Part shown: in pieces, positions 1 to 63,897 of the stretch
Position numbering within the stretch: position 1 is the first letter of the stretch
How the letters are laid out: the number at the start of each line of letters is the position of its first letter
Source of the DNA: Podarcis filfolensis
Taxonomy: Eukaryota
Strand: one strand, 5' to 3'
Assembly (NCBI GenBank): GCA_964270895.1
Contig: OZ185440.1
Length of the DNA stretch: 64,000 bases
The notes under the pieces: model-generated
Database searches by the model: none
Seen by the model: the letters and a program-made list of their open reading frames with translations, nothing else
What the model was told of the DNA's origin: nothing
Translations under genes and position numbers: made by a program

Positions 1-1400
1 TAACTTTATAGTTTAAATTGTGTTTGAAAGGATTGATACAAGTGGAGACTGTTTCCCTCTAGAGGGAGCTTTTGAAACTGTTACAAGAGTGGAGCTGGGG
101 TTTTTCCAGCTGCAAGATAAGAACTGTGAGAATCAGAGATTGACCTTGGATCTTAAGAATGTCGACAGAAGGAGCCTTAGTGACTGTATTATGTAAGATA
201 AGCTATTTGTTGGAACAGCTCCACAAGAAGACGGATGTTATGAATACTAAACTTGAGACCTTGGGACAAAAAGTGATTAATTTGGGACAAAAAGTGATCA
301 CCAATACAGAAATTGTTCAGGATTTGACACAGGAACCTACTTTGACAGGACAAACTGGGGAGAAGACGAAGGAGAAAGTTGTTGTTGTTGAACCTAAAGT
401 AACACAAGTGGGAGCCCCAGCCTTTCAGAGGCAAATTGAGGACTATAAGTGGAGGCCTTTTATGATTGAATATAGAAAAAGTCAGAATTTGAAGATTGGA
501 GCCCTGCTTGGACTGGAGAAGGAAGGTTGGATAGACTCTTTCATGCAGGGATTTACTGACCTTTGGGTCCTGAATCTGGGTCAGGAGGTGATTGGAGTTG
601 TGGGGGCCTTTGGATCTGGAGGAGCCTTGAAACATGATTTGAGATATTGTATGGACCTTGGTTCTAGCTGTGGAGAGTTGGCTGGCCTGTCGAGAGGGAA
701 TGGGGGCACGGTTGGGTCAGGGCCCCCCCGAGACCTGCTCTTCAGCATCTCCAGCATCAAAGAATATGAAGAAAAACTGCAGAAGGGACTTGGAAAAGAT
801 TTAAGAGCCTCGGACAGAGGATCACCAGGTTGATGAACTATATGGAATGGACGGAAATGACTGGCAGAATCCGAGACCATGGAGAAGAGATGGTGGAAGA
901 AGATTGGGAAAGTTTAAAGTTTATATATAGAAATATTGTAAAATTAATGAGTGTTGGAAAATTGTTGGAATGAAACTTTATGGCTTTAGCAGAAATGTTA
1001 TAAGGAGTTAAGTATAAATAAGTACTTTAGTATTAATGGAAAATAAGGTTAAAATATGTTAAGGTATTCATAATGATAAAAATAGTGAAAGATGGAAAGG
1101 AATTGCTGAAATGTAACAGAAGTGGAATACAAAAAGGGAGGTGAGAGGAGGTCGATGAAATAAGGGAATGAAAGATAGAGTAATGAAATGGTATGGTATA
1201 TGTTTTTAAATTGTTGTTGTTTTGTTTTGTTTAGTTTAGTGTGTTAAGGTTGTGTTTTGTATTGCTTATATATTGTATTGTATTGTTTTTTCGTTTTTTC
1301 TTTTTTCTTTTCTCCTCTATTTTGTCTTTTTCTCTTGCCTTTTTTCTTCTTTTTTCTTTTCTTGTAAGTCTTAAAAGTAATAAAGATTATTTAAAAAAAT
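1..1400 (+). mobile_element. L1-derived ORF1-only (HAL1-like) retroelement, copy 1, 5' part cut off by window edge
   Basis: Colinear with the reverse complement of 48993-50850: same ORF and stop, followed by an ORF2 C-terminal remnant (MNYMEWTEMTGRIRDHGEE), a T-rich 3' UTR and an AATAAA/A-rich tail near 1378-1400. Confidence 0.8.
159..833 (+). CDS. Intact 224-aa ORF1-like protein of the HAL1-like element (coiled-coil N-terminal half)
   Basis: Open ORF with heptad-like repeat [24 protein letters not shown] resembles the coiled-coil/RRM junction of L1 ORF1p. A homologous disrupted ORF lies at 50033-50680 (-). Confidence 0.6.
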   Translation: MSTEGALVTVLCKISYLLEQLHKKTDVMNTKLETLGQKVINLGQKVITNTEIVQDLTQEPTLTGQTGEKTKEKVVVVEPKVTQVGAPAFQRQIEDYKWRPFMIEYRKSQNLKIGALLGLEKEGWIDSFMQGFTDLWVLNLGQEVIGVVGAFGSGGALKHDLRYCMDLGSSCGELAGLSRGNGGTVGSGPPRDLLFSISSIKEYEEKLQKGLGKDLRASDRGSPG

Positions 1401-1707
1401 AGATTTATTTTTAAGAAAAAGCAGCTGTAGGGCCTTGATCTGGAATCATACACTCCAAGTGACCTGTTTTAAGTGGGGCATACCGGATCACAGAAGCCTT
1501 CTGTTTGGATCCCGGAATGGTTTTTTGGTCTGGAGCTCTGGTGCAAGACACTTGCTCGAGCGCAAGTCAGCAGCGCCTTCCTGGCCGGCACTCCGGGGAC
1601 GACCCTGCTGACAACTGCCAGAGCGCCTGATCGAAAGGTGTGTCTCTCCTGACATCCCATAGGAAAAGGATTTGTGTGATTTAAAATAGACATATACTGT
1701 ACTGTAA

Positions 1708-4828: not shown

Positions 4829-4830
4829 TA

Positions 4831-33149: not shown

Positions 33150-33660
33150 AGTGGGACCCCTGCAAGGATATGACCAGAAGCCTTTCCAAGACCTTCCCTG
33201 CGGGCGTCTCCTTCGCCGATTCCCGTCTCCCTGGCCTTCCGAAGAGCTTCCGGAGGGCGCTGCGCACCATTTCTACTTCCCACCTCATTCCATCCTCGCA
33301 ACAACCCGGCGAGGGAGACTGGACGAAGGACGTCATGGCCGGACCGAGGTCACGTGTCTAAAAAAGTGGAGCCCTGGGACTTCCGGTCAGCGCCAGCAAC
33401 TGTAATGGCGGATTTCCTCCGATCTCCGGAGGAAATCTGCTTCGTGGAGCTAGGGTTCTACCGCTACGGTAAGGGTAAGGGTCGGGGGGCGGCTCGGCTG
33501 AGGGTCGCGGGCGGCGCCGAGGGCTTTCCGGCCCCGCAGGCGAGGGAGGAAAAGGCGCCCGGCGCAGGAAGGCCTCCTGGGCGTGGCCTGGATTTTGGGG
33601 GGGGGAGGCCCACCTGCCCCCATTTCTGGGGGGAATTGCTCCGCGCGCCCCGGAAATGTG
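33150..33660 (+). promoter_or_regulatory. RNASEL: CpG-island promoter of RNASEL
   Basis: Only large CpG-rich island upstream of the CDS. It contains an E-box GTCACGTG (~33349), an ETS site ACTTCCGG (33379) and a YY1-type ATGGCGG (33405). Confidence 0.75.
33376..33468 (+). other. RNASEL: Putative RNASEL first (5' UTR) exon; start approximate
   Basis: Ends at donor ACG|gtaagg (tandem second donor at 33475). A matching acceptor ttgcag| at 34746 precedes the ATG by 72 nt. No transcript evidence available. Confidence 0.6.
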
Positions 33661-34818
33661 TCTTCTTGAAGCGAACAGACAGAAAGATGCCATGGCAAAT
33701 ATTCAGTCTTTTGTGTCTCTCTTTTTCTACCTACGTCCTATAGTAAAGAAAGATGTTGTAAATAGGACACCTGGAAGCTTGAAATTATAAAATGACTCAT
33801 TAAAACCAACCACAGTAACATCCGCATTGCACACAGAAAATTAAGATAACAAAGGATTACGTTAAAATAAAAATGACGAATAATCCTAATGAGAAGGATG
33901 AACCTGGTGCTCTGCTATCGATTTATTAATGTTTGGCTCTATTTTTGGCAGCCGCAGCATCCTTAAATCACCTGATTAACTATTTGCAGTTTGTTGCCTT
34001 TTTTTGTTAAGAGATTTGTGACCTCGCTGAGCCCATGTTCCACTAAATACGATGAAGGAAACATGGGTATAGCCAAGGGGGTGGGGGGGCAGCTGTTCGC
34101 CCACATCAAGTAAAACAATAAAAATACTTGACTAACTAACTAATCATGTCAGTTTTGCTGCTCTAACAAAAATCCTGGCTATGCCCATGGAAGAAAATGC
34201 AATTAAAATTGTACTACTGTATAGTCCAGGGGAGGAGGTGTCACTGTCCCACAACAGCACCTGGATAACAGAAAAATCTGTCAAAATCTTCAGTAGGAAG
34301 TTAAATAAAATATTAAAATCATACCAGCATCTTCACCTTATCTTGGTGGTGACAGGTGGGCACAGCAGCAGCAAAAAGAAAAAACACAAGCTGGTATAGC
34401 TAAGAAATGCTGTTACTGGTTCCTGCCCTTTTAATCTTTCCACAATACCTCTCTGCCCCAGTGTAACATTGCTGTGGAGTAACCCTACACTGAGGCACAG
34501 AAGATATTGTGGGGGGAATCAACACGATGGGCACCAGCCACAAGCACTCAGGATCCATGTGACAAAGGCAGTGTGACTAAGTTTTCGCTATGTAGCACCT
34601 CTGTTATTTGAGCCTTCACTATCCAAAACCACTGAATCAAGAGACGCTATGCCTTGCATCCAGCCCTGTGGCACCATAACTCTTTGTGTGAATAGCTCTT
34701 CCATTATTAAGTTGATAATGTCATAGCTGCTGCTTTTGTCTTGCAGTAGAAATATATTCGCAGAAAGCTAATGTAATCACGACTACTGGGAGAGGCGTCA
34801 GAACCCTACAGAAAAGAA

Positions 34819-36229
34819 ATGGCAGCTGATAAAGCCCTTCAGCTAAATAATGCAGTAAGAAGAGGATCGATCGAGACTGTCCGGCAGTTGATAGAAGAAG
34901 GTAATGATATCAATTCAAAGGTGAATGATGGATGGACAGCCCTTCACAGTGCTGTACAAATGAACGAAGAGGCAATTGTTCACCTTCTGCTGGACAGAGG
35001 AGCCGATCCACTTGCTAGGAAGGACAATGGAGCTACCCCCTTTATTCTAGCAGGGATAACAGGCAATGTTGAACTTTTAAAGCTCTTCCTTCAGAAGGGG
35101 TCGGCCATCAATGAGTGTGATTTGAATGGTTTCACGGCATTCATAGAGGCTGCTGGGTATGGGCGAGAAGAGGCCCTGAGGTTTTTGTATGAGTGTGGGG
35201 CAGATGTTAACTTGCCCAGAAATGTGGCTGATGAGGATAAAAGGGCCCTGAATAAAGGTGGCAAAACAGCCCTGATGGATGCTGCCAGGTATGGTCACTG
35301 CTCTGTTGTCAAAGTCCTAGTTGAAGAATTGGGTGCTGATGTGAACATCTGCGACAACTGGGAGAGAAATGCATTGGTCCATGCTCTCTCAGTGACTAAA
35401 AAGGATCAGGCCCAAGGCAAAGAGGCAGCTGCCCTTTTCCTCTTAAAACATGGGGCTGATGTGAATAAGAGAGATGAAGTTGGGAAAACTACTTTGATCC
35501 TGGCAGCTGAAATGCAAAGCCTAGACCTGGTGAAGGCTATATTGGAAAAAGAAGTGGACGTGAACAACGCTGACAAAAACAACAAAACAGCCCTTATGGC
35601 AGCAGTGGAAATGGAAAATTATGAAATAGCGAAGACATTATGTGAAAAGGGAGCAAGAACAGACATTGGGAACTTGATAGATATGGCCAGCCTGAATTAC
35701 AACAACAGAATGATAACGCTTCTTCGCCAGTATGGAGCATTGTCTTGTCTAAGGCAGCCAGAAATACAATGGACCTCTGCTAGCAGACACTGGCAATCCA
35801 AGCTCCGAGATCTTTATGGAAAGTATCGTCCTATGATTGGAAAACTCAAGATCTTCATGGTTTCAGATTTCCGAATTCAGACAAGTTCCCACGGAGGTGT
35901 CTACCTAGGATTCTACAATGGGGAAGAGGTGGCTGTGAAGATATTCCCCACCACTGCAGAAAATGCTAAACGAGAGAAAACCTGCCTTGAGAAGTGCCGT
36001 ACCAGCAAACATCTGGTGAAGTTCTGTGGGTGGGAAGAGCAGAACTCCTGTCTCTACTTGTGTCTTTCCCTATGTGAGAAAAACCTTGAGGAATACTTCA
36101 GGACAGCAGAGACTGAGAATGGAACTATGAGAAGTAATGTTATTATTGAAACAATATTTCAGGCAGTGAAGGAACTGCACTCATTTGGATTTGGGCATCA
36201 AGATCTGCACCCAAGTAACGTTTTGATAG
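34819..36229 (+). CDS. RNASEL: RNASEL coding exon 1 (ankyrin repeats and kinase N-part)
   Basis: GWTALHSAVQ, RKDNGATPF, GFTAFIEAA, YRPMIGKLK, HQDLHPSNVLI; donor G|gtttgt. Confidence 0.95.
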
Positions 36230-36925
36230 GTTTGTGTTCTTTCTTATATGGCTGTCTGTTGAGTGGAACCCAAGCCATTACCCAAGTGTAGTTGAAAGAA
36301 TTTTATGAAAGAAATATGGAGTAGCAGGTTTTCAATTTTATGGTGTAAACCAAGGATGGGGAATCTGTGTCCTTTAAGATACTGTTGGCTAGCAAGTCCC
36401 ATAATCTCGGAACGTGGAGCTGATGGGATTTGGAGTCCAGCACTAACTGGAGCACCACAGGTTCCCTAGCAGGGAATTGGCTAGCCAATCAACTGCAAGG
36501 GGTCAGAAATTCAGATCCAACAGCAAGCATGTGAGCAGCATAGAAGAATAGTTACACACACAAGCTGAAAGAAAACAGCAGCAGATATTGGAGATTTATT
36601 ACAGGGAGTGATATGGGATTGACTCTCTGGTGACATACCAAACCCTTGGATAGTCTAAGCTGTAGTGGTCATAGTGCCCTGCATTTTCCTCTTCTAACCA
36701 GCAGCCTCACTGGTGCAAGGCACAGTCTGACCCGCTCCCTTGGTAATCCTCATAGAACACTAGCCCAATGGTTGCCATTAATTTGATCCTGAATTGATTT
36801 TAGAATGAATTGATTTTAGAATGTATTTCAATTAATTGATTGTGATTTTATGTAAACTGTGTTACTTTTATTGTTGTTAGCCACTCTGAGCCCGGCTTCG
36901 GCTGGGGAGGGCGGGATATAAATAA

Positions 36926-36973
<48 letters not shown>

Positions 36974-39900
36974 GGAAGGAGAGATTCCAGCTCAGGAATA
37001 GAATATCTGCTTTTCAGGCAAAAAGTTAATTATGTTCAACCCCCAGCATCTCCAGGCACGGTTGGGAGAGACTCCTGTGTGGCCCTGTGGAGAGCCACTG
37101 TCAATCTGAGCATAAACAATGTTGAGTGCAGAGGGACCAATGGTCTGACTAGATATAAGGTAGCTTCCTGTGATCCTAGTCTGCACTCTACTCACCCAGC
37201 TCCCAGATCAAGCCGTCTGGAAGCTGACACCACCATCCTAAATCTTGAGAATAATTTCACTACACCTTTTTACTGCTTCAGAAATGTGGCCCGCCCCTCC
37301 AATAGATCTCCATTGTTTACTTACTTATTATGCACTAATACTTCGAATATTATGATTTCTCCTCTGCATTATATCCCCTCAACAAATCTGGAACGTAGGA
37401 CTAAGCAGATGGATGGATGGTTTCAGACAGAAGTCATTCTGGTTCTACCTGGAGAACAACCTACACCAGGCACCCCCAAACTCGGCCCTCCAAAAGTTTT
37501 GGGACCAAAACTCCCACCATCCCTGACCACTGGTCCTGTTAGCTAGGGATGATGGGAGTTGTAGTCCCCAAACATCTGGAGGGCCAAGTTTGGGGGTGTC
37601 TGACCTACATATTCAGATAAAAAAATAAGTTCTGTTGGCATCTACATTAGGGTGGCAAATCTTTTTAGGATCAAAGGTTACATTGCCATGTTGTGACTTC
37701 CAGTAACTGAGCGTGGGGGGGGGGGAGTCCCTGAAGTGATATTAGTGCTTGAGGTGAATATTTATTTATCATACTTCTGTGCTGCCTCAACATCAGAAAT
37801 ATAAAAACAATACATTTCAAATAAAACGTAAAAGCTAAAAGCAGCAGAGATAAAGTGAAACTAGTCAACAATACCATAAAAATGTTCATGACACAGACAC
37901 ATCTTTGATGTTTTAAAATAAAGTGTCAAAATCTCAAAAATCCACAGAAATCAAAAGCCCCTAAAAAGCCTTGGGAAATGAAAATGTCTTCATTTGACCA
38001 TAACAGCAATACAAAGTAGGCATCAGGTGGACTCTCTGGGGAGGCCATTCTATAACTGGGTATAACAGCTGAGAAGGCCTTCTCCCTAGCAACCACCAGC
38101 TAGCTCTCATTAGGCAGGGACATGCAGAGAAGAGCCTCAGGCGCTGACATAAAGTTTCACGTAAGTTTGCATGTGAGCAGGTGAATTGGCTGCTCTTGTT
38201 GAATCTTGAAAGTTTCCAATATGTGCTCTTTCCCCACAAAGCATTCAATACACAAAGATGTGAAAACCATTCCGCTTGATTGCTTCCACTTATGTATTTA
38301 TTTATTTTGCTAGATGTCACAGGCAAGGTTTTTCTAGCAGATTTTGATAAGACCAGAAAATTAGATGATGAAAAAGATCTTACCATCACAGAAGATCTGC
38401 AGGTAAGTTGCCTCTGCAGTTGCCTCTCCAGCCTTCTATATTTGCAGAATGATTATCCCCAACCATTAAGGCAATGTATTGTGTGTTTGTGCACAATATA
38501 CTTTTATGCTTAACCATAACGTAGAGTCGGATTGAATGTTAGTCCTACTCAGAGTAGCCCCATTGAAATTAATGTATCTGGCTAACCTAAGATCGGGGAC
38601 GCGGGTGGCACTGTGGGTAAAACCTCAGCGCCTAGGACTTGCCGATCGCATGGTCGGCGGTTCAAATCCCCGCGGCGGGGTGTGCTCCTGTCGTTCAGTC
38701 CCAGCGCCTGCCAACCTAGCAGTTCGAAAGCACCCCCGGGTGCAAGTAGATAAATAGGGACCGCTTACCAGCGGGAAGGTAAACGGCGTTCCGTGTGCTG
38801 CCCTGGCTCGCCAGATGCAGCTTGTCACGCTGGCCACGTGGCCCGGAAGTGTCTGTGGACAGTGCTGGCTCCCGACCTATAGAGTGAGATGAGCGCACAA
38901 CCCTAGAGTCTGTCAAGACTGGCCCGCACGGGCAGGGGTACCTTTACCTTTACCTTTAACCTAAGATCAGTAATTCCAATGAGTTTACCCAAACTTTGCC
39001 CGGTTCAACTTGTATTTATTTATTTGATTTCTTACCAGTCCTTCACCAAAAGGTGCCAGGGTGGAGTACAACAGTTTTAAATACATTTCTGTATTATTGG
39101 AAACATTTTAAAACAAATTAAAGTCACGGGAATGTGGTAGGTCCTGAAAATGAGTATATCAGGTGTATTGTTCAAAGAACAAGAATAAATTGACATCAGT
39201 AAGAATGTTAATTGCTAGTTCTGGTCCCAGGAGTTCTTTCTGGTAACAGTGTCATTGTTTTTGTGAAATTTTTAATTTCCTGTATAACCCTGGTATAGTC
39301 GTACCTTGGAAGTCGAATGGAATCCGTTCCGGAAGTCCATCCGACTTCCAAAATGTTCAGAAACCAAAGCACAGCTTCTGATTAGCTGCAGGAAGCTCCT
39401 ATAGCCAATCAGAAGCTGCGGAAGCCCCATCGGACGTTCGGGTTCCAAAGAATGTTTGCAAACCGGAACACTCACTTCCAGGTTTGCGGCATTTGGGAGC
39501 CAAAATGTCCAAGTACCAAGGCGTTGAAGATCCAAAGTACGACTGTAGATTAGAGAATTTAATAACCTGTCAGTGCAGCCCTGCGTTTCTAAGGGCCAAA
39601 TTTGATTCCAGTCGTGGTGGTGGGAATCTGATCAGGACCATAGTGGTGAAGAACCAGTGTGTGCCGGGGAATGGTATCTAAACATTCCTCCAACATTTTT
39701 TCCCCAGGTTGAAATTACCTCCATCTGCTATTTAGTCTATAGGGCAAAACATAGAGATACTGAACAAGCTGTAGTATAATCCTATTCTCTAACATTTTAG
39801 GTAGGTTTCTACATGCAAGGGGTGTGTTTGTGTGTAGAAACATTATGTCATGTGATTGCATCACTTGCAATTTAAACTGACACAGCCCAGACACAGATTT

Positions 39901-42900
39901 TTAGCATCTCGGCAAGAACTAAGCCCAGGCACAAAGGATAAAAGTGTGATTCCAGTCTACTTGCCCAAGAATGACATTCTGTGTTGTGAAATCGTATTGC
40001 CATTTGTTCTCACATGTAGGCGCTCAGAAGTCTAGCCCTATATGTTGCTATGAGGGGGACAATCTGCTTTGAAGCCTTGCCTGCGCAGTGTCCGAAGGAT
40101 GTAGATGATTACTTTGAAATAGAAGACCTCAGAGCAAGACTGGAATCTCCTGATGAAAACATCCCAGTCACTGAGCAACTGGGACAGTTGATCTACCATC
40201 CTTATTTCTGGAGCAAGAAGGTGTAAGTACTAAATAAATACAGGAAACTTAGCAACTATCCATTCTTATCATTCTGCCTTCCTCAGTTTGATTTGCCCTG
40301 TTACTACAACAGCATGGAAGAAGAAACTTTGCAAGTAGGATTAGAATGACATTTTGGGAAAATGTTGTAATCCATTCATTTCTATTTTTTGAAATCTTAA
40401 GTTTTGCCTTCAGAATTGAAGCTCAGAATTAGATTACGCTGCTTTATATGTCTTTGTTGCTTATAGACTGTCATGTGCTTTGTCATGTTGTTTAAAATAT
40501 AATGAATGTTCAGGCTGGGTTGTTGTCCCTCATGTGAAAACCACATGGCTAATCATTAATGTAAGATAAAAATAATGCAGTCAAACCTCGGTTGTCAAAT
40601 GTAATCCATTCTGGTTACAGGTAGGTAGCCGTGTTGGTCTGCCGTAGTCGAAACAAAATAAAAAAATACCTTCCAGTAGCACCTTAGAGACCAACTAAGT
40701 TTGTTAATGGTATGAGCTTTCGTGTGCATCCGTTCTGGAAGACTGTTTGACTTCCGAAATGTTTGACAGCCAAGTTGCAGCTTCCGTTTGGTTGCAAGAG
40801 CTTTTTGCACTCAAGCAGAAGCCGCGTTTGAAGTTCAAGTTTCAAGGAACATTCGAAAACAGGAGCATTTACTTCTGGGTTTTTGGCATTAGGGAGCCGA
40901 AACGTTTGAATATGGAGCCATTCGAGAACCGAGGTTTGACTGTATATATATTTCAGTAAATAACTGCAGTGAACTTTGGATAGTGAGTTTGCTGCAGATA
41001 TGACAGCACATTGATGCAGTATTGATATTATTTGTCATTGCTAGCCATCAAATACCAAATGTTGAATATGAACTATGTGACGTGCAATTGGCACTGAAAT
41101 CCATGCACTAAGATTTAAAGGATCAATGTCTGATTCTACGCTACTATTTAGGGCTCTGAAAATCCACCCTCATGCCTAACAAAAAATCTCAAGAGACTTC
41201 AACAGGCAGAAACACACATTTCAAATTGGTTTTGCACAGCCACAATAATAATGCCACATCTGGAGAGCCACAGATTAGCCACACTGCATTAGATGGTAAT
41301 GTGTCAGGGAGAGAAAAGGCAAAATCAGAGTTTTGTTATAAAAGGCAGCTTGCAGAGCAAGGATGCCCCTTCCTTGCATATGACAGGAGTTAATGGGTGC
41401 AGTATACCTGCCCCAGGAGAACAGAGGAAGCTGCTTTATTCTAGGTCAGACTATTTGTCTATGTCTTGGTGTTGTCTGCTCTGCCTGGCTGCCACCAGGG
41501 TCTCATTGCCTGCTACTGGGTCCTTTTAACTGGCGATGGCAGGTGTTGAAGCTGGGACCAAGCGTGTGCTCTGTCCTTTCCCCGTCTCTGAGACCAGCCT
41601 TACCATATGGTCACCTTGGCTCTTTGGGTTCTTAGTAATTGCCTTTTGTTTGCCAGGAGATACAGGGTCTTAAGAGACGTTGGGAATGAGAGCGATATAA
41701 AGACACGCAACACTCGGCACCATAACAGCACTAGTGAAATTCTGAAGGCTCTGAATAGTGAGGAAGATCCTTTCAAGGACTGGACTGAAAAGGTAAGTGA
41801 TCTCTTGCAACTCCGTATGAAAGCTTCAGCCGTGTTGATTTGAACCGCCACATTTGACCTCTTTTCCTTCTGCATTGTCAGTGCCAGTGCTTCATCACTT
41901 CTCAAAGGCATGAGGGCAACTTAAGTGCAAAACAAACAGCTTAGGTCTGATTCATGTCTTTACAATATGTACACCTGGTCCTGGGCAAGTATCTGTTTGC
42001 CCCTGCAAAACCATTCCTATGTCTGTGAAATGATTTGCCGTTAGGTCAGATTTTAAACATAGCTGTACCTCGGAAGTCAAACAGAATCTGTTCCGGAAGT
42101 CCATTCAACTTCTGAAGTGCGGCTTCTGATTGGCTGCAGGAAGCTCCTGAAGCCAATCGGAAGCTGCAGAAGCCCTGCTGGACATTTGGCTTCCAAAAGA
42201 AGGTTCGAAAACTGGAACACTCACTTTTGGTTTTCGATCATTTGGGAGCTGGAATGTTCAACTCCCAAGGTGTTCGGGAGCCAAGGTATGACTGTATTGC
42301 AAAATCTGCCAAGCAATATAACTGGAAACTGTTTCAATAAATTAACCGGTATAGTATTATAATAACCAATATATGTCATACTTCATGCCATTCTGTCAAA
42401 TTTATATTTTTGCATATATTTTTGTATATTTTTGTATACTGTATATTTTTGTGACTTGGAATCTGCCAGCTTGCAGGTCTACATGGAAACTGTATTGTGA
42501 GGAGTGGGTTTCATGGACCCAGATTAATGACAGGGGACATGTGTTTTTTTCAGATTGATAAGGATGTATTGGACTGTATGGTTGGTCCCTTTAATGACAA
42601 GAAAAAGAATAAGAATAAGAAAAACAATAAAGATTATCAAAACTGTGTGACAGATTTACTGAAGCTGATCAGGAATATGGGGGAGCACTTCAGTGAGAAG
42701 GATGAGAAGTAAGTGAGAGTTGTTTTTTTCTAGATTTGCAGCTGTCCCTAGCCTTCTGCAGAGGAGTCACTGAGTGGCCATTTCTATGCAGTGTACTTCC
42801 TCTTCTGTAAACCAGTATGTGAATCCGGACTTAGATAATCACATCTTTGGAAAGGCCTCCCAGTGGTCAAGTGGAGTTTTGCACCTCAGCTACCGGCTTC

Positions 42901-48928: not shown

Positions 48929-51900
48929 CTTTTTGAAATTGTAATAATAAAAAAGACAAAACATAATATTACACCAGAGGATTCCCAATCTCTCTCTTTT
49001 TTTTTAAATAATATTTATTACTTTTAAAGATTACAGAAAAGGGAAAAAAAGGAAAAAGACAAAAGAGAAAAAACAAAAGAGAGAAGAGACATGTCAGGGA
49101 ACTGACATCGGAGCCAGAGGTGGAGGCAAGGCTCCCAAGCGATGCTGGAGAAGGGCCCAGCAGGGAGAGAGGGAGCTCATCGGCTGGGGAAGGAAATCAG
49201 CGTAACACCAGGGATAAAGGGGGGCAGATGGGGGAATCGGCGAGGGGGCTCCAGGACTCCTCGCCGGAGACCAGCGGGGAGAGCACAGGTCCTCCGCTAC
49301 CCACACCCACCCTGCGCAGAAGACTTCCGCACAGGGAAAGTAGGCGTAGACTTGGCGTCAAAGAACTTCTTTGCTGGAAGAAGTTCAAGAAACGCCCACT
49401 TACGGATTCTGCTAGCGACTGAAACAGCCACGAAGTGAAGGGCTGTCCAGACAGAAAAGGTTTAACCAGGCAACCTAGCCAGGAGTGGCGGCAACTTACG
49501 CACGAGCAATCCCTATAACCATTACAAGACAATACAATACAATATATAAACAATAAAGAACACAACCTAAACACATTAAACTAGACACATTAAACTAAAC
49601 TAAACAAAACCCTAACTCACCCTAACCCTAAACAAAGCAAAACAAAAACCATTTAAAAACATACATCACACCTTTTCCATATCTATCTTTCATTCCCTTG
49701 TTTCCTCGACCTCCTCTCACCTCCCTTTTTGTATTCCACTTCTATTAATTGTTTCAGCAAATCCTTTCCATCTTTCTCTATTTTCTATCATAATATAAAT
49801 ATCTTAACATATTTTTAACGTTATTTTCCATTAAAGATAAAATACTTATATATGCTTAACTCCTTATAACATTTCTGCTAAGGCCATAAAATTTCATTCC
49901 ACCATTTTTCTATCACTCATTAATTTTACAGTATTTCTATATATAAACTTTAAATTTTCCAATCTTCTTCCACCATCTCCTCTCCCTGGTTTCGGGTTCT
50001 GCCAGTCCTTTCCGTCAATTCCATATAGTCCATCAACCTGGCGATCTTATATCCGAGGCTCTTAACTCTTTTCCAGGCCCCTTCTGCAGGTCTTCTTCAT
50101 ATTCTTTAATGCTAAAGAGCAGATCTCGGGAAGACTCCGACCCAACAATACTTTTATTCCCTCTGGACAGGTCAGCCAAATTTCCATAGTTGAAGCTAAG
50201 ATCCATAAAGTGTTTCAGGACATGTTTCAAGATTCCTTCAAATCCAAAGGCCCCCAGAACTTCGATCTCCTCCAAACCCAAGTCCATGTCCCAGAAGTCA
50301 GTTAATCCCTGCATAGAGGGATCTTTCCAACTTTCCTTCTTCAGTCCAAGCCGGGATCCGATCCTCAAAATCTGACTTTTTCTAGATTCAATCATAAAAG
50401 GCCTCAACCTATAGTCCTCAATTTGCTTCTATAAAACTAAGGATCCCTCTTGTACTACTTTAGGTTCAACAACAACAGCTTTCTCCTTCTCCTCCACAAT
50501 TTGTCCTGCCAAAGTGGATTCCTGTACCAAGTCCTGAATTATTTCTGTGTTGGTGCTCACTTTTTGTCTCAGATTAATCACTTTTTGTCCCAAGTTATCA
50601 ATTTTAATAGTCATAGTGAAGCTGTTCCAGCGAATAGCTTACCTTACATAATACGGTCACTATGGCTTCTGTCAACATTCTTAAATGGTCCAAGGTCAAT
50701 TCCCGGTTCTCACAATTTCTTATCTTGCAGCTGGAGATTCCCCAGTTCCACTCCTGTAGCAATTTCAAAAGCTCCCTCTAGAGGGAAACAGTCTCCACTT
50801 GTATCAATCCTTTCAAACACAACTCAAGCAATAAAGATAGTTTCAATTTTCAGTTACTTTTCCTCCTTTTTAAACGCAGAAGAGAACAATGGAAACAGTA
50901 TACTTCTCTTATTTAGTTAGCTGTCAAATACGTTCTGTTCACAGTCAATGAACTCTCCCAAAACGTCACTTTTTCTAGCAGCCCGTTTCCAGGTTTAGAG
51001 CGGTGGTAATTTGATTTTTCGCTCTCTCCTGCAGGCTCGCTAGGTTCAAAATTTCCCCCCTCTTCTCCTGCTTCCAAGGGGGGTTTGGTGTTTTTATCCG
51101 ACGGAAATTAATCCTTTACCAAAGATTTTCCATGACTTTAGCTTGTAACGTCTTTGCTTCAAACTATTTACAAAAGAGGAAGGCGGACTTCCTGTTTAAA
51201 ACCTTCCTGTTTCAATGCCAAATTAAGATATTTGAAGATCCAATTTTCTGTTCTACTCACGGGTAGTTGTTTAAAGTCCAATTGTCCGCAGGAAAAAGTC
51301 AGCGCTCTCCGGCAACAGCAATGCAGCTTCACTCCATGAAAAAAGCAGTCGATTCGAAGCACCGCGCCACTCACCCCACGTCGCTCCGGATCCCCAAAAC
51401 AGGGTTTCCCCGCGGGTAGGGGAGGCGCAAAAGGTGCCAGCCGAATCCCAAGTTCACAAGCTTCTCCCGCCTGTGATTTCAGTGGGTCTCCGCCTTCGCC
51501 GTGGCGGTCAGACCCTGGTTTCCACGGAGCAAGTTCCTCCCGATCGGAGGAGCTCCGCCATTGCCAAAGGCGCCAACCCGGAAGTCCCCAGAGGATTCCC
51601 AATCTCACCAATCACCTTTCTGAAGGTCCGGTTACCCCAGATAGGATAGATGCAAATCTCTGTGGTTGTTAAAAGCACAGAGAATACTTTAAAGAAAACT
51701 GTTCAGAAGCCAGAATTCCATTCTCTTGATGGAATAGACACTTAATAATTACTTGACATGTGCTCAATGCATTTTTGGCTGGCTAACTTCTGAATAGTTT
51801 TTCTGTCAATTAATGCTTATGTGGCATCATCATGCATCTTAAGCCTCAAGACTTGAGCTATATGCAACTTCTCAGCGAGCCTGAAACTGCTCAACAAACT

Positions 51901-54900
51901 AATTGCACAAGATTGCCAGCTTGAAGACTCCTGGAGAAAAAAATGATTTTGATTTCAATATAATAATAATAATAATTATAATAATTATAATAATAATAAT
52001 ACAAGTTACATTTGTTAGTCGCTTTATCTTGCTCAAGGCAACCCAAAGCAACTTACAGAGCAATGGGCAAAGGGGGCTAGAAAGGTGAGATAAGATTCTG
52101 TGGAATATCATAGCACCTATTAGCTTGCTGTGGCCAGGATGGGAGGCTCAGAAGGTGGCTTTCCTTCTTTTTTCCTTTCCCTTCCTTTCCTTCCCTTTAC
52201 TCTCCCTACTGACTCTGCCCCTCACGCTGACCACATCAGCTCCAGGACCTGTTTAGTGGCCTGTCAGGGCAGGGAGGGGCTTAGGGATCAAGGAGAACCA
52301 CGACCCTGACATGTCCCAGTTCAGCCCACACCATCCAAGGAACATCAGCCGTGGGTCACCAACAGTGATGGAGCTTTCCACTCCCATAGGGAAGAAACCT
52401 TTGCCAGCAGACCTCCCTCTCTGCTGACAGGGGTTGTGGTTCCTTCCACTGCCTTGTCTGCTGCCTCAGCCACTCTCCCACAAGGTTGTCATCCAATTTT
52501 CAAAGAACTTAGAATTTTTAACCATGGATTCTGACTTAGTCATAACTGGGCAACTGTGTATTGGAAGAGACTGTATATTGAAACTATGGAGCTAAGCAAA
52601 TTCAACAAGAGAGTATTTCAGATACTTTGAAATACTTCATAATAGTGTTGTGAGTTTTGGTTGTGTGCCTGGGTCCCTTCGGATTCCTGTATCCTCCAAG
52701 GATTGGTAATGCCCCCCTAAGTATGGGTTGTGAAGGTAACAAAGGAAGTGGTTCTGTGCCAGAGAGCAAATGGGTGGGCCCTCCTCCCTCAATCGACCAG
52801 TAGTTTTTGGGACGAGCGCAGAAAGAATAAACGCCATGGTGCATCTGCAGCAGCACAGCTGGATGCCTTCATCTGCCCCAGCTGCAACAAAACATGTCTC
52901 TCCCATATGGGTCTCTACAGCCACAGCAGACACTGTAACTCTCCAACTTCACCTCCAAAGGTTCACTCTTCCATTGTCTTGTGAGACGAGTCTCACACTG
53001 CTCAGAGTGGGGAGGCATGCAACAATATAATTAGAATCATAGAATCATAGAATCATAGAGTTGGAAGAGACCGCAAGGGCCATCGAGTCCAACCCCCTGC
53101 CAAGCAGGAAACACCATCAGAGCACTCCTGACATATGGTTGTCAAGCCTCTGCTTAAAGACCTCCAAAGAAGGAGACTCCACCACACTCCTTGGCAGCAA
53201 ATTCCACTGTCGAACAGCTCTTACTGTCAGGAAGTTCTTCCTAATGTTTAGGTGGAATCTTCTTTCTTGTAGTTTGGATCCATTGCTCCGTGTCCGCTTC
53301 TCTGGAGCAGCAGAAAACAACCTTTCTCCCTCCTCTATGTGACATCCTTTTATATATTTGAACATGGCTATCATATCACCCCTTAACCTCCTCTTCTCTA
53401 GGCTAAACATGCCCAGCTCCCTTAGCTGTTCCTCATAAGGCATCGTTTCCAGGCCTTTGACCATTTTAGTTGCCCTCCTCTGGACCCGTTCCAGTTTGTC
53501 AGTGTCCTTCTTGAACTGTGGTGCCCAGAACTGGACACAGTACTCCAGGTGAGGTCTGACCAGAGCAGAATACAGTGGCACTATTACTTCCCTTGATCTA
53601 GATGCTATACTCCTATTGATGCAGCCCAGAATTGCATTGGCTTTTTTAGCTGCCGCGTCACACTGTTGGCTCATGTCAAGTTTGTGGTCAACCAAGACTC
53701 CGAGATCCTTTTCACATGTACTGCTCTCAAGCCAGGTGTCACCCATCTTGTATTTGTATTTCATAATTAAATATGACATGATCTAAAATGTCAAGAGATG
53801 GTATTTATTCTGCATTATTGGAATATATGGGCACATGAAGACAAACATGCAAAAACACTCACACACACTTTCTGGTCAGATACATATGTCATAAGGTGTA
53901 ACAGATGCAACAGAGTACATAGAATCTGCACACTCTTGCTTACCACCAGTGTAACAGCTGGGCCTCCTAGATAGTTTTGTTGTAACCACTGGAGGAGAAG
54001 GTTCTGTTTTCTCTGACTTGGGTTTTTTGAAGCCCCTCATTGCCTTCCAAGTGCAATATCTGCAAGGATAGCGTTGACATTGGCATACTGTATTTAACTG
54101 AGACAACCAAAGGCATTGTTACTGGCTGGGACAGTCACAAAAGATGGGACTGCACGACAAAAATAGTTGCCAAACCGGCTATAGCTTTATTGAGCCCCTG
54201 CTGATTTGGCCCCAGAGCCATTCTTCCAGCCCTGGTGTCGCTGCAGCTTGCAATGGCTGAATAATAGCTGTTTGTGTTTGCATGGCCACGCCATCACAGA
54301 TTAATTTATCACATAAAACATGCACTTGCAAAATGGTCATGATAAGCTTAGCAAATTATAACCACACCTATTGTGTTAACCCAATTAAATCCTCATCCTC
54401 CGATATCTGCCCCCTAATTTGGCTCCTCTTGAATTTGATTTTTTAAATTGTGTTGTTAAGTTGCAAAGGCAACTTTGGGTCAGATTCAATGAATCTGTTT
54501 ATAATCTACACGCAATGGCTTCATCCATTACCATTATAACAATAATGCACACACTTTGCCTTTCTAATCTACTTACTTCTTCCAGTAGAATAATAAAACT
54601 GGAAAGATACTCATAAAAGCAGAATGATAAAGAATCCTGTTCAGCACACCTTCAGCAATAAAATTTCGGATCTGAACGACCTGTGCATCTGTGAGGTTGA
54701 CCTGGACACAGAAGAAGAGGCCATATCAGGAAGCAGATGACAACTACATCAACCTTCAATTAGAAAGAAACAGAACATTTCATAGCACAGCTGATGTCAC
54801 AGGATCCTTTGGGATCCTACCTTTCAACTGAGGGCTGAATGCAAGAACCTGCATGTGAGGCTTTCTTTGGGGGAAACAGACGCACAATACTAGGGAGGTC

Positions 54901-57900
54901 ATAGTTGACATTTTATCGTCAGTGTGAATCTGGTTTCACAGCTTCCCTCCCACATCTACATACCAGCAATTTAAGCAGTGGCTCATCCCTCAGTCTTGCT
55001 CTGTGTCATGCCTCTGTCAAGACCAGCCTGGAGTCCAATGAAGCCTCTTTAGAAGAGGGCCCCATTTTCAAGCCTAGCTCTCATGAGATTCTAGGAAACT
55101 CAGTGGAAACTGGCAACCCTCTTGAGACCATCTCCCAGGAAGATGCCTCACTTGAGGAAGCTACCCCTGGCCACTCAAAATGGTGCCGCTGCCACAGAAC
55201 ATTGCCAACACTATCAGAGATCACCTCTGTTGCTACCAAACTTGGTGATTAAGCAGTATGCATAGAAATAGCTAAAACAAACATATATCTAGCTGAGTGC
55301 ATATACTGTTGGAAGTGCTGGGGTGCAGCTCAGCTTGCACTGAAGGCTGATGTATCTCCATGAGAAAGGGGAGATGGGGAGAGGAGCCTCCAGACTTTCT
55401 GGTCTGTCCTTCTGATCTTCCTTCAGGGCTAGACTACCGGTATACACTGTACTCTTAGCACTGCTGACTTCACTTCCTGTGTCCATTCCCTTTCTTCTTC
55501 TTATGTGTGTTCCTCATGACAATAGGCATGATTTGATGTCTACTCCTGAGATACAAGAGCAAGAATGGCTTACTGCATCTCCATCTTAGCCAGAGAGAAC
55601 TAGGGATCTTTCCTATCAACATGTATTTCCAATAACAAATACTACCTTTCTTTCCCCTCAAAAATCCGGAGTCTCAGCATGATTGTATCCGGGGGGGGGG
55701 GGTCTGTCTCCATTCAGCTTCTGCCAGCATTTTACTCCAAATGCTACCATTCACTATGGCATTTAGCAGAAGTCCCAATGGCTTCATTTTGTGCCCAACT
55801 GTCTTAGAAAACTTGACTCCAGCCTCTTACCCTCAGTTTAGGTGGGATATCTGAATTCAAAAAGAGCTTGTTGATGGTGGACACTTTGCTCTTCAGAAAG
55901 GCAATATCTTTCTCGGTGTATAACCCAAGGGAGGACAGGACGACCACGGAGTCAGAGAGGTAAAAAAACCTGCGGCAATAAAAGACAGACACAGAGCAGA
56001 AGATGGAGAGATGGGTGGGCAGTGGGAATGGGGGTATGTTGGACACAACACAAAACCTGAGGCAGGATCTCATCATCACAACTGGTGGCTGGAATCTGGA
56101 CACTGGGCAATATCTGGGGTCACTGAGAAGGATCTTTATCAGGGTCATTCTCATGCTGATAAGAGGAAAGCAGGCATATAAACTCAGGACTAATTCCAAG
56201 ATGGTCCCTGCTCGTCATGAGAAACCAGTGCAATCGGAGCTCTTCCATTGTCACCATTAAGCACCTGATGGTACATGGCTGGTAGGAAGCATTCAGTAAA
56301 CAAACAAACAAACCCAACAACATAAGCAATATTTCTTGATCAGGAGCTGGCTGAATTGCAGGAAGCAGAGAGTAAGAATAAATGGACGGTTATCCCAATG
56401 GAAGGATGCAGAAAGTGGAGTCCCACAAGGACTGGTGTTGGGACCTGTCCTTTTAACTTGGCGAGGTTGCCAAGTTTGCTGATGATATGAAATTGCTGTG
56501 TGCGCTTATATCTAAAAAGGATTGTGATGGGCTCCAAGCGGATCTCTTCAAACTGCATGAATAGGCAGTAAAATGGCAAATGCAATTTAATGCAAGCAAG
56601 TGTAAAGCAATGCACATTGGGACAAAATAAAATTCCTAATTTCACATGTGTGCTCATGAGATCTGGACTGGCAATGACTGACTTGGAAGGAAACCTTGTG
56701 GTCATAGGGAAAATGTTGACCTTGTGTGTGGCAGCTGTTAAAACAGCAAATACCACACTAGGTATTGTTAGGAAAGGGACTGAAAATTAAACTGCTGATA
56801 TCGTAATACAGATCTATGGTGTGACCACACCTGGAGTACTGTAGAATACCATTTCAGTTGCCTTCCCTCAAAAAGCTATTACAGTGGTACCTCGGGTTAA
56901 GTACTTAATTCGTTTTGGAGGTCTGTTCTTAACCTGAAACTGTTCTTAACCTGAAGCACCACTTTAGCTAATGGGGCCTCCTGCTGCTGTTGCGCCGCCA
57001 GAGCACAATTTCTGTTCTCATCCTGAAGCAAAGTTCTTAACCCAAGGTACTATTTCTGGGTTAGAGGAGTCTGTAACCTGAAGCGTCTGTAACCTGAAGT
57101 GTATGTAACCCAGGGTACCACTGTATAGAGTTAGAAAAGAGCAACCAAAACATTTGGGACTTTTTAGTTAAGAGAAAAGGCAAGTAAGGGGAGGCATGAG
57201 ATATCTGCATAAGATTATTTGTGGTATGAAGAATTGGGGGTATAGGAAAGTTTTTCTCCCTCTCATAATACCAGAATTCATCCAACGAAGTGGAGCCTTG
57301 GAATATTCAGGACAGACAAAAGAAAGGACTTCTTCACATACCACATAGGTTAATTTGCAAAATATAGCGATGGCCACCAAATTGAATGATTTAATTTTTA
57401 AAAAAGATTAAAAGTGGAGGATAGGCTATCATGGCTCCTAGCAATGATTGGCTATGTTCTCCCTCCCCTGCCAGAGGCCCTGGGCCTGCGAATGCTGTGA
57501 GTCGCTGGTGGAGAGAGGGCTCGGGCTCAGGTCCCAGCTGGTGGGCTTTCCATAGGTAACTAGCTGGCCATGTCAAGTATAGGCTGCCGAATCGGATGGG
57601 CCTTTACCTGATCCAACAGGACTCGTTTTTATATTCTTAATATAATCCAAACTGGCATTTTTACCAGATGACCCTATATGGTGATACTTACAGCACAAGG
57701 CACCACCTTGCTATGTGAGGGCCAATTTAGATGTGATTATGACAAATGCTTCTGTTCAGAGATTTGCCCCGCTAAATGTCTGCTCTGTTCACGCATGGAG
57801 TCCAAGAGGTGTGCAAGGCATGGCAGGAGAAATAACAGAGGCTTGCTCACTCACTTCTCCATCTCCAGGTAAAAATAGAGATCGTTGACCAGGAAGTTGA

Positions 57901-60900: not shown

Positions 60901-63897
60901 TATAAGCAGGAGAACTCCTGGGTCCCAAGATCCAAGTTTGGGACAAGTATCTTTGGTGGGAGAACTCCAGCAGGTATCTAAAGTCACAAAATATGCAGCC
61001 AAGTAAAGTGTGGAAATACAGGCTGCTAGACATTTAAAATATGCCCTTTAAAGTGAGTTCCAAAATGTCCCCTTAAAAAGTCTCTTTCCAAAGTTTCCCT
61101 TTTCCCACAGCATAGGAAAAGACCATACATTTGGTAACTTAAAAAATGATTTACTTACAGTTCTCCAAAGGTCAGATTCATGTGCTTCAGAATAGTTACA
61201 AATGCAGAAAAACTTAGCTTAGTTTCCAAGTTGATGAAAGATTCTAAATTATTTGTACAGGAACTCAAGAGAGCCATGTGAGAGCCTTGCAGCTGAGCTG
61301 GAGCAACCAGCTCAAACCTCTTCACACGTTGAGCTTCTCAAGTAGACTGGGGGAGAACAAAGGCTTGATTACCTAGTTCTTCCCAAGGTGAGGGGAAGTG
61401 GACATAGCTAAGCCTGGCAGGACAGTTTACTCTATGGTATTAACCCCTTAATGTGTCAACTGAACTTAAACATATTGGTTATATGAGGCTGGTTATTCCA
61501 CAGTAATCACTACCACACTCCAGGCCATAAATGTGATGGAATCGTTCTGTTTTGATAATATTAGAACAGAACATTTCATTGCCAGCTGCCGCCTTGTCAG
61601 TTGTATCATTGCCCATTCCACTGTGCTGGTCATATTTGCGCCTCCTGTTTACTCACCATTTCTCTTCCAAGGCCTTCATGACAAAAAATTGTGCTGTGAC
61701 CAACATGGGAACAGTCACATTAGCTGCCCTTGGAATCTCTCTGATAATATCTGCATCACAATCCAACAGCTTTTCTGGGTGGGTAAAACAGAAAAAAAGG
61801 GGGGGGGGGACAGGAAGACATACTTTCCAAAAGAGTCTTCTATTTATTTTTGCCTTTGAGCAATACTGAGTAAACTTGGGCCAATACATTAAGATCATTA
61901 AGAAGTGGTAATTGATACAAAGAGGATGGCCACCTGTCTGTGTTTTCCAGCCAAAATTACCAGGAGAGCTTCACCACACATGTATGACAAAATGCTTTTT
62001 TTGAATGCTTGTTTGCTTTCTAAGCAGGGAATCTAATGCCCAAACTGAATTTTCACTCATGAAGACCTTCAGAGTGGCTTAATTTGAGGAGACAAAAATA
62101 ATCCGAGTTGGGGAGGGAGGGTCCTTCTGATTCGTTGGTCATTTTTGGAGCTGTTAGCAGCCTGGGCCCAATTTATTAGTGTTCCTTGCTTTTTCATTAT
62201 GTGATCCCAGCCAAGCAGGGACCACATCAGAAGCACGATGATGTCACAGGGAGGTTTATCTTGACAAGTGACATCGGAATGCACAATGGATCAAGCATTT
62301 GAGCAACACAGCTGCACCTGGAGCTGCATGCCAACGCTCGTTCCGATGCGTATTCAAGGGCGCATCTGAGCTGATGCTCCTGCTTCAAATCCACTTCCCT
62401 TTGCTGCTACATATAGTGCAGCAATCAGGGAGCATCAACCTGGACATCTCTTTGATCAAGGCTAGGGAGTTCCACAAACAAGGGCAGAGCCTAGCTGCTC
62501 CTTAGGTAGACCCTGGGCTGGCCTGACCTGAAAGTATTAAGCAGATGAGATCCAGAGGCACCAAGGAACTACCTGGGATAGGGGTGGTTGGCAGAGCCAT
62601 GCGGGGACCTGGGACAGGAATGCTGCCCTTGCTTCCTCCACCTGCAGCCTCAAGGGTCCTGGTGCACAGACCAGGAGTCTCCAAGGTGGGTAGGGCTGGT
62701 GCACAAGGCAGGTGGAAGCTCCTGTCATTGACAGGTCAGGGGAAGCTCACACACCTTGCAATTCAAGGGAGTATCTATAGCCTGCGAGTTGATGTGTTGG
62801 GTCTTGTGGGCGAGAGTGAGGTGCAATTGGAGCCTGGCTTGCATACCGGGTGGGATACTGTGGAAGAAGAAAGTCCTGACGCAGTCATTGACCTGAAGGC
62901 GCTGGATCCTGGGATTCCCCTCGTTTTTGAGTTCTTCCACGGCCATCCAGAAAAGGAGTGGGGCTTCAGCATTGTGCATCTTGAGAAACTGCCTGAAGTA
63001 ATCCAAGTGGATGGGGTTCTGCAGCACTTCTGAGAGCGCCCTATAATGGTAAGGAGACATTAGGCGCTGCTGAGGCCATCAGCTCTTTCACCTAAATCAC
63101 GTATTTTTGTACACAGGTCCCAGGTTGTGAATGATGATGGGAAATAGAGGCAGAGAGACCCTTCCCTGTCCTCCAAGACACTGAATCCTAAGAACTGTCA
63201 GCATTGCCTGAAGAACCCAACCCCAAAGGGACTTGCAAAATTCTGTTTAAGAAAATCTCCACTTCAATTTAAAATAATGCTCCTAAGTCTCAGGAAGGAC
63301 AGTGTGATGTAGTTCTCTTATCATTTCTTGTATACCACTCTCTCCTGGTTTAAACAGTCTTGCAGGTTTCTGAAGTGTTGCAATCTTTGCAGTGTAGCCC
63401 TTTGCATGTTTTCACAGAAATAAGTGCTGTTGTGCTCAAGGTGACATTATTCCATCCTGGATAAGTGTCTAAAGAACCACAGCCTTAAACCTCTCAAATC
63501 TATTTGACAAGAGAGGATGTCATGGAAAACGTGCAGACCATTGGCCTATACTGCACTCTGCCTCAACTCTCTGAGAAATATCTTGTCTGTTCTCAGTCTA
63601 TGAACAAACTGGAAGATGGTCTTGGTAGCCCAGAATGGGCAGTTAGTGGGGGCCAAACCAGACATGACATTGAAAGCATGAATTTGCAGGCAATAACAGC
63701 GTCCCCATAATGAACCTCTTGTCTGACTTGGCCCGGAGTGTTGGAGCTAAGTGGCAGGTTGTATCTCTAAGGCACGATGATGTCCTACCTGGGCCTCAGA
63801 GGGGGCTTTCTTGAGGCAGGCCCCTTCCTCATGAAGGACAAGCTTGATCGGGTCCAGTGGAGATTCCTTCTCATAGATAACGGACGACTGAACACGC
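48836..63897 (-). CDS. RGSL1: Regulator of G-protein signaling-like 1, 3' half (5' part beyond window; final exon unresolved)
   Basis: Ten phase-compatible exons: 63789-63897, 62847-63040, 61657-61774, 59806-59899, 58576-58705, 57855-58023, 55831-55969, 54577-54701, 53944-54059, 48836-48928. RGS domain plus motifs matching recalled human RGSL1 ([24 protein letters not shown]); synteny. Confidence 0.88.
48993..51587 (-). mobile_element. Full-length L1-derived ORF1-only (HAL1-like) retroelement, copy 2
   Basis: 19-bp TSD CCAGAGGATTCCCAATCTC at 48974-48992 and 51588-51606. It has a CpG-rich 5' end starting GGACTTCCGG, a disrupted ORF (14-nt deletion plus CAG>TAG), an ORF2 terminal remnant, AATAAA and an A tail. 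Confidence 0.88.
49092..49526. mobile_element. Solo LTR nested in the HAL1-like 3' UTR
   Basis: TGTCAGGG...ATTACA ends, 5-bp TSD AGACA (49087-49091, 49527-49531); absent from copy 1. Confidence 0.85.
51955..52000. repeat. (AAT/TAT)n microsatellite
   Basis: Direct reading. Confidence 0.9.
52770..52990 (+). mobile_element. RTE-clade LINE 3' fragment
   Basis: Encodes [23 protein letters not shown], resembling the C-terminal Cys/His motif of RTE ORFs. Confidence 0.7.
53034..53762 (-). mobile_element. CR1 LINE, 5'-truncated, uninterrupted ORF2 end
   Basis: EKDLGVLVD...[19 protein letters not shown]...[11 protein letters not shown]...FKQRLD; (ATTCTATG)n tail; possible TSD ATAATTA. Confidence 0.95.
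53944..54059 (-). CDS. RGSL1: RGSL1 exon ([14 protein letters not shown]...CYTG)
   Basis: ttgcag|A ... G|gtaagc. Confidence 0.85.
54577..54701 (-). CDS. RGSL1: RGSL1 exon (VNLTDAQ...[11 protein letters not shown])
   Basis: tccag|GTC ... AA|gtaagt. Confidence 0.88.
55831..55969 (-). CDS. RGSL1: RGSL1 exon (FFYLSDS...[12 protein letters not shown])
   Basis: ccgcag|G ... AGG|gtaaga. Confidence 0.9.
56450..57360 (+). mobile_element. Old CR1 fragment interrupted by a MITE (56882-57123)
   Basis: Degenerate KFADD and WQMQFN motifs. The TA-flanked CAGTGGTACCTCGG MITE is an inverted copy of 4587-4828. Confidence 0.75.
57855..58023 (-). CDS. RGSL1: RGSL1 exon (IQSSP...[25 protein letters not shown])
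   Basis: tcatag|AT ... AA|gtgagt. Confidence 0.9.
58576..58705 (-). CDS. RGSL1: RGSL1 exon ([17 protein letters not shown]...[14 protein letters not shown])
   Basis: ctacag|AGA ... A|gtgcgt. Confidence 0.88.
59806..59899 (-). CDS. RGSL1: RGSL1 exon ([10 protein letters not shown]...KEKM)
   Basis: ggcag|G ... ATG|gtgagt; the only candidate found that bridges the phase 2 to phase 0 gap. Confidence 0.8.
60629..60718 (+). mobile_element. BovB (RTE) 3' end fragment
   Basis: AAACTGCGGGAGGCAGTGGAAGACAGGAGTGCCTGGCGTGCTCTGGTCCATGGGGTCACG...(AAC)n tail. Confidence 0.85.
61657..61774 (-). CDS. RGSL1: RGSL1 exon ([14 protein letters not shown]...VMKALEEKW), RGS domain end
   Basis: cccag|AA ... TG|gtgagt. 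Confidence 0.9.
62847..63040 (-). CDS. RGSL1: RGSL1 exon, RGS domain ([20 protein letters not shown]...[10 protein letters not shown])
   Basis: ttatag|G ... G|gtatgc. Confidence 0.92.
63789..63897 (-). CDS. RGSL1: RGSL1 exon ([10 protein letters not shown]...KPPLRP)
   Basis: cccctgcag|GC ... AG|gtagga. Confidence 0.8.

Follow-up and report, generated by a model that had tools for sequence, protein, structure and literature searches.

Two copies of a deleted L1 element lie in the 64,000-nucleotide stretch of Podarcis filfolensis DNA analysed here (hereafter, the window), one flanked by TSD copies and the other cut by the start of the window (Table 1). The 19-bp TSD that the initial annotation had called perfect proved exact, could be extended at neither side and occurs only twice in the whole window. 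The nick site on the opposite strand was presumably TCTC/A, which differs from the mammalian consensus TTTT/A. The TSD-flanked element runs on the minus strand from 51587 to 48993 (2,595 bp); once the nested insert is taken out together with one of the two 5-bp duplicates, it measures 2,155 bp, in agreement with the ~2.15 kb estimated earlier.

Table 1. Coordinates of the element, its parts and its second copy in the window
Feature	Position	Strand	Remark
TSD, 5' copy (19 bp)	51588..51606	.	exact match to 48974-48992
L1-type 5' UTR / internal promoter	50679..51587	-	lizard clade-1 terminal motif, CpG-rich
Streamlined ORF1 derivative (coiled coil, first RRM half, part of CTD)	50033..50678	-	
40-codon RRM deletion point	50233..50234	-	P0014 residues 214-253 missing
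17-codon CTD deletion point	50104..50105	-	~P0014 residues 297-313 missing
L1 ORF2 end, ~50 codons, non-coding	49913..50075	-	probable ORF2, judged in part by motifs
3' UTR, A/G-rich then T-rich	49006..49912	-	interrupted by nested insert; AATAAA 49019-49014
Nested solo-LTR-like insert, 435 bp	49092..49526	.	TG...CA ends, 5-bp duplication 49527-49531 / 49087-49091
A9 tail (49005-48997) and 4 extra bases before TSD	48993..49005	-	
TSD, 3' copy	48974..48992	.	exact match to 51588-51606
Second copy, cut by window start	1..1403	+	82% identical; open ORF 159-833

The layout claimed initially, that is, a CpG-rich 5' UTR followed by the ORF, the end of ORF2, a T-rich 3' UTR, AATAAA and an A tail, was recovered. 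The 5' UTR of ~908 nt contains 38 CpG (CpG o/e 0.6-1.0 vs. 0.28 across the window) and three upstream ATGs, where 12-17 would be expected. It begins with the terminal motif of lizard clade-1 L1 (GACTTCCGG ... ATGGCG), in which the spacer measures 16 nt compared to the 10 given for lizard clade-1 L1 in passages of PMC5381506. Neither endonuclease (EN) nor reverse transcriptase (RT) sequence is present, as had been noted: the 2,155 bp are fully accounted for, with no room left, and the RT-side ORF2 part of the gene model P0002 (see below) found no match in the window. An autonomous lizard L1 was rejected because ORF2 EN and RT are missing, and a SINE or known structured RNA was rejected as well, since Rfam returned no matches for the element at an E cut-off of 1 and its first part comes from the 5' end of L1. 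The nested insert, absent from the second copy and single in the window, is a later passenger, LTR-like in its TG...CA ends and its duplication. It also has a short terminal hairpin.

The second, diverged copy had been reported with the same junction, and this was borne out at 82% identity. It ends with AATAAA at 1379-1384 and an A7 tract at 1393-1399, whereas its 5' end and TSD fall beyond the window edge. Both copies share the RRM deletion and the junction of ORF1 to the ORF2 tail, and the CTD deletion of the second copy carries a 3-codon insert. They stand on opposite strands, 48 kb apart, with different 3' flanks; since the similarity between them stops at the A tail of the second copy, a segmental duplication was rejected. 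In all, the deleted unit was seen as DNA in two copies, one with its TSD inside the window, and a frame of the same form in six database proteins. The single ORF1-like ORF of the initial annotation is open in the second copy (224 codons), but in the TSD-flanked copy, where it had been described, two lesions interrupt it: 14 nt are deleted near 50615, and a stop codon stands at 50431-50429.

The ORF2 tail, put initially at ~45 codons, comprises 44-54 depending on where the junction is placed. Its first 40 nt overlap the end of the ORF in another frame and supply the ORF stop codon. The tail (50075-49913) matched a retroelement 3' fragment at 27352-27750 (11/27 residues, BLASTP E 1e-6), with which it also aligned as DNA. 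Judging by its motifs and by the 3' UTR that follows it, this fragment is probably L1 ORF2; searched as 27355-27750, it had no match in Pfam or PDB. It is contained in a 5'-truncated L1-like 3' end at 27100-27750 (-), from which the zinc-knuckle segment is presumably missing internally. In both copies the ORF2 tail is frameshifted, holds a stop and is not coding, yet no other DNA is as conserved between them (92%), and it is therefore probably kept as RNA. Folding of the 3' region gave no special or stable fold (z +2.6).

Several other features were observed in the window. A stretch of ~100 bp at 33377-33474 (+) matches the 5' end of the element (score 72, shuffle maximum 30). It lies within a CpG island, 1.3 kb upstream of a large exon at 34777-36291 (+) that codes for ankyrin repeats and the first part of a kinase domain, and which we take to be RNase L-like. 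The match ends at a splice-donor-like GGTAAG, with neither a TSD nor a further L1 match, and it may represent a promoter or first exon that RNase L gained from L1, or else a promoter of the host that is akin to the L1 5' end. In addition, the window contains a Tc1/mariner-like transposase fragment (2091-2805, weak DDE_3), two MITE-like repeat pairs (4588-4830 / 56880-57122, 92% identical; 39295-39547 / 42059-42296, 75% identical), a 144-bp tandem duplication (5067-5360), a probable CR1-like ORF2 end, judged by its motifs (53117-53782), and, presumably, an RGS-domain-like exon near 62725-63078.

Descent of the frame from lacertid L1 ORF1

Searches with the ORF of the second copy revealed no link to ORF1 in Pfam, in the ESM Atlas or among PDB sequences, nor in any of the 391 candidates of a word-indexed protein search; Pfam gave no name to 16 true ORF1p sequences either. 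By contrast, an exhaustive phmmer search returned 11 proteins, namely five of ORF1p type, five short relatives and one fragment. Expansion of the ORF1p-type family gave 20 matches; those with a species name come from Podarcis, and a UniRef L1 RRM label is attached to one match. In profile-profile comparison, the short family matched lacertid L1 ORF1p at 99% (E 8.8e-18), which settles the homology check on which the initial reading depended. A 16-sequence profile of the parent family in turn matched human ORF1p (HMM, E 1e-4 to 4e-4), and with the model of P0014 human ORF1p took all ten of the top Foldseek ranks (E to 1e-9). Further, the gene model P0002 runs on into L1 ORF2 sequence (E 4e-15) and is the nearest ORF1 in the tree to the short proteins. 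The ORF thus derives from lacertid L1 ORF1p, with 33-49% identity to P0014 and P0002 in local alignments. In a scan of the window, the short-family profile matched the two copies only. Two Podarcis muralis gene models, P0010 and P0020, join a TRIM39-like RING/B-box to most of L1 ORF1p, either as an annotation artefact or as a real fusion.

The short form was found in six database proteins, which are open by ascertainment: P0001, P0005, P0006, P0007 and P0009 from the phmmer matches, and P0012, encoded on a Podarcis lilfordi chromosome (123-Mb record), from a separate search. The same end motif from the ORF2 overlap occurs in five of the six, P0005 stopping earlier. Pairwise identities ranged from 28 to 46% over 15 pairs (the second copy and five of the six proteins; P0005 and the fragment P0008, a broken relative among the phmmer matches, were left out). 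On its right side, the RRM gap ends at the same point in the short proteins; in P0009 this gap is longer and the CTD segment is still present, a pattern that indicates stepwise erosion. In the tree, the eight short rows fell on one side of a 100/100 branch, beside P0002, and formed four long-branched sub-lineages; such branches may be drawn together artificially, but the shared gaps agree with the tree. The suggestion that the deleted form itself was amplified is in line with its presence in far-diverged sequences, including Podarcis lilfordi, and with the grouping of the short proteins beside lacertid ORF1. Taken together, ORF1 homology, diverged short relatives and a single clade speak for an independent squamate HAL1-like family, as had been proposed, and a lacertid-type HAL1-like non-autonomous L1 family is the best reading of the data.

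Compared to P0014, much of ORF1p has been lost, conserved RNA-binding arginines included. The ORF starts at a Met equal to P0014 residue 56, so that the 55-residue N-terminus is absent, and a scan of the 5' UTR for ORF1 N-terminal codons revealed no trace. The coiled coil, although the longest part retained, is shorter than in P0014. According to the P0014 model, the RRM gap removes a loop, beta3, alpha2 and beta4; the CTD gap takes 17 residues, and the last ~45 P0014 residues are replaced by a short out-of-frame tail from the ORF2 remnant. In the profile alignment to human ORF1p, the RRM gap spans the segment with R206, R210, R211 and REKG, as numbered by counting from R261/R262. Neither the arginine aligned to human R261 nor that of the AFRLG motif is kept in any of the eight short sequences, whereas both are at least 90% conserved in 16 ORF1p. 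The short proteins have a pI of 4.6-6.7 (7 sequences), as opposed to 6.6-9.1 for ORF1p (13 sequences). The short-ORF model contains a helix at residues 2-55 (pLDDT ~70 at residues 11-30) and no strands, at a weak overall pLDDT of 43 that is too poor for a fold search. A 21-bp (one-heptad) tandem repeat was observed at 50557-50605, in the region coding for the coiled coil; the window copies have this extra heptad, which is missing from the five short database proteins in the alignment. As to what these parts do in human L1, passages of published work report that L1 requires the basic N-terminus of ORF1p (PMC5940361) and that a human-cell proxy of HAL1, ORF1mneoI, needs an RNA-binding ORF1p and is killed by R261A/R262A (PMC11260458).

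Selection on the frame

Selection was analysed at the DNA level on the two window copies (210 codons). When no transition bias was assumed, the dN/dS ratio was 0.60 (0.39-0.93, an interval that excludes 1); a model that includes the bias gave 0.82 (0.58-1.26). In this comparison, changes after insertion push the ratio towards 1 and dilute selection. Shifted frames gave 0.62-0.94, the same as the true frame, and changes were spread over the codon positions as 34/42/36. The ORF was also less alike between the copies than the UTRs and the tail (82% vs. 89-92%). CpG decay was rejected as the cause, since the difference held at non-CpG sites (p 0.0015), and so was positive selection, dN/dS being at or below ~1. 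Adenine makes up 0.30-0.32 of the ORF, and the commonest inferred change, by a rough count, is A to G.

Among the proteins, substitutions were non-conservative: mismatches between short proteins scored -0.30 to -0.87 in BLOSUM units (15 pairs), compared to -0.66 to -0.74 in neutral simulation and +0.10 to +0.19 for ORF1p pairs (9 ORF1p). Identity within the family was nevertheless 0.43 at columns conserved in ORF1p vs. 0.29 at variable ones (14 ORF1p), a difference that none of 200 neutral runs matched. The coiled coil did not stand out, with a dN/dS of 0.85-1.16 and a family column identity of 0.29 vs. 0.32 for the rest. With regard to the frame itself, three of four indels in the ORF are in-frame and none of ten outside it (p 0.011; small counts), one stop was found where 4.3 were expected (p 0.07, not significant alone), and the chance of an open frame at the divergence of the family is below 1%. 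These figures suggest that the frame stays open while its residues drift almost neutrally, and that a weak residual amino-acid constraint may remain.

The frame and the mobility of the family

The explanation that we prefer as a whole, with a probability of roughly 0.6, is a HAL1-like derivative of a lacertid L1 whose frame is kept open and whose protein function is mostly gone. The family would have a single origin: in a lizard L1 of clade 1, an internal deletion would have fused the ORF1 end with the final ~50 codons of ORF2. With regard to its mobility, very probably the element would be transcribed by RNA polymerase II from the CpG-rich 5' UTR, its polyadenylated RNA would be captured by the ORF2p of an active L1, probably with full ORF1p in trans, and insertion would proceed by target-primed reverse transcription, assisted by the conserved ORF2 tail/3' UTR as RNA. 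Mobilisation in trans by L1 ORF2p is what the hallmarks of the insertion point to, and in human assays Pol II transcripts need both L1 proteins, as stated in PMC2666806.

With regard to the ORF, we put the odds at about even that it serves as an open, translated frame with little protein function, its amino acids being under strongly relaxed, non-zero constraint. The product would no longer act as an RNA chaperone, the RNA would be translated before it is copied, and source elements would keep an open, translated frame of ~200-225 codons. Translation would keep the RNA bound to ribosomes, at the place where ORF2p is newly made, or shield it from decay, and being translated may outweigh the protein made. 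More specifically, and more tentatively, the element could be an L1 parasite that uses its ORF as a translated spacer, with start, stop and frame selected across lineages after RNA binding was lost. According to passages of PMC11260458, GFP-encoding mRNA retrotransposes only rarely in human cells, which implies that translation alone is insufficient there and that some contribution must come from the L1 ends that the element has kept.

The short protein might instead act as an adaptor, made in cis, whose coiled coil joins L1 ORF1p trimers and thereby recruits ORF1p and ORF2p of the helper to the RNA that encodes it, or else disturbs L1. We consider this unlikely. The retention of the coiled coil as the longest part, its helix at 2-55 in the model and the residual conservation at ORF1p-conserved columns are compatible with such a role; a truncated human ORF1p comprising N-terminus and coiled coil affects L1 in trans (PMC5605252), and multimerisation has been proposed as a role in ORF1-bearing non-autonomous LINEs (passages of PMC5786205). 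However, the coiled coil shows no more conservation than other parts of the ORF, the N-terminal region needed for the human trans effect and for retrotransposition (PMC5605252, PMC5940361) is absent, and an adaptor without RNA binding would depend on the nascent chain to act in cis.

That the ORF is decaying without a role, the element moving as a plain bipartite non-coding LINE derivative whose open frames reflect luck and database selection, seems improbable to us. Such a relic would accord with near-neutral substitution, with an ORF that changes faster than the UTRs, with the broken frame in one of the two window copies and in P0008, and with the fact that protein databases display open frames only. 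It would not account for the open frames, sharing their start and stop, at the tips of short-clade branches of up to ~1.9 changes/site, for the in-frame indels in the unselected window pair or for the depletion of upstream ATGs. That no amplified family exists, and that the window merely holds two relics of local origin or a single deleted L1 duplicated along with its segment, is hardly credible: only two copies are seen as DNA and the TSD of the second lies outside the window, but they are on opposite strands, 48 kb apart and 82% identical, with similarity ending at the A tail, the first has a TSD of its own, and the same form is found in six database proteins, one from Podarcis lilfordi.

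Half-L1 elements are extended to squamates as an independent origin, and, under the preferred reading of an open frame with little protein function, the stated reason why HAL1 keeps ORF1, an RNA-binding ORF1p acting in cis, is called into question. How non-L1 Pol II RNAs obtain ORF2p, and whether passage through the ribosome is required, is an open question in passages of PMC11260458, and a natural family with an open, function-stripped frame makes this testable. If the translated spacer is true, the family would stand naturally midway between HAL1 and bipartite LINEs that code for nothing, and it would provide a third route to L1 ORF2p, besides ORF1p in cis and SRP-bound SINEs. Were the ORF only a relic, the result would add only modestly to the known repeats of lizards.

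Comparison with known systems

Mammalian HAL1 was reportedly described by Smit in 1999 and by Bao and Jurka in 2010. Passages of later work report that it arose several times in mammals (PMC5753468, PMC3627910, PMC4859970). As described in parts of the literature (PMC5753468, PMC5786205, PMC3627910), HAL1 is like the lizard element in being L1-derived and non-autonomous, with a 5' UTR and an ORF1-derived frame, no ORF2 enzymes and a poly(A), and in preserving coding capacity for long. The element shows the corresponding features, that is, derivation from the L1 clade (profile, fold, joint of P0002 to ORF2, tree), the hallmarks of retrotransposition (TSD, poly(A) signal, A tail) and the lack of an ORF2 endonuclease or reverse transcriptase. 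It does not encode the ORF1p with complete coiled coil, RRM and CTD of a standard HAL1. The element would work like HAL1 but has no intact ORF1p and, because its ORF lacks 40 aa of the RRM, 17 aa of the CTD and 55 aa of the N-terminus, is HAL1-like and not a standard HAL1. The initial description as a HAL1-like, ORF1-only element therefore stands as to the descent of the frame, but not as to its state, in that ORF1 has been gutted in RRM, CTD and N-terminus and drifts near-neutrally, unlike in described HAL1. Judged by published descriptions, the lizard element further differs from mammalian HAL1 in its squamate origin, in an ORF1 that has been stripped of the N-terminus, the conserved arginines, half the RRM and some of the CTD, and in the nearly neutral drift of this ORF. 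Passages of PMC11260458 describe HAL1 as needing ORF1p in cis.

No description of a squamate HAL1 was found among the open-access papers that the literature searches brought up; HAL1 does not occur in PMC5381506, and term searches of PMC5203782 yielded nothing relevant. An automated repeat consensus of the lizard family may well exist.

With lizard clade-1 L1, as described in passages of PMC5381506, the element shares the 5' terminal motif, a long CpG-rich 5' UTR, a T-rich 3' UTR, AATAAA and an A tail. It differs in length (2.15 kb vs. ~6.4 kb), in the lack of EN/RT, in the adenine content of its ORF (0.30-0.32 vs. ~0.43 reported for amniote ORF1) and in the cuts to the RRM and CTD, which the same passages describe as very conserved in L1.

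Finally, the bipartite ORF-less LINEs derived from RTE, Ingi, Vingi and R2 likewise consist of 5' and 3' LINE parts joined by an internal deletion and moved in trans, and HeT-A and Ag-Sponge are ORF1-bearing non-autonomous LINEs (passages of PMC5786205). The lizard element differs from both groups in belonging to the L1 clade and stands between the classes, with its frame kept and its protein function apparently largely lost.
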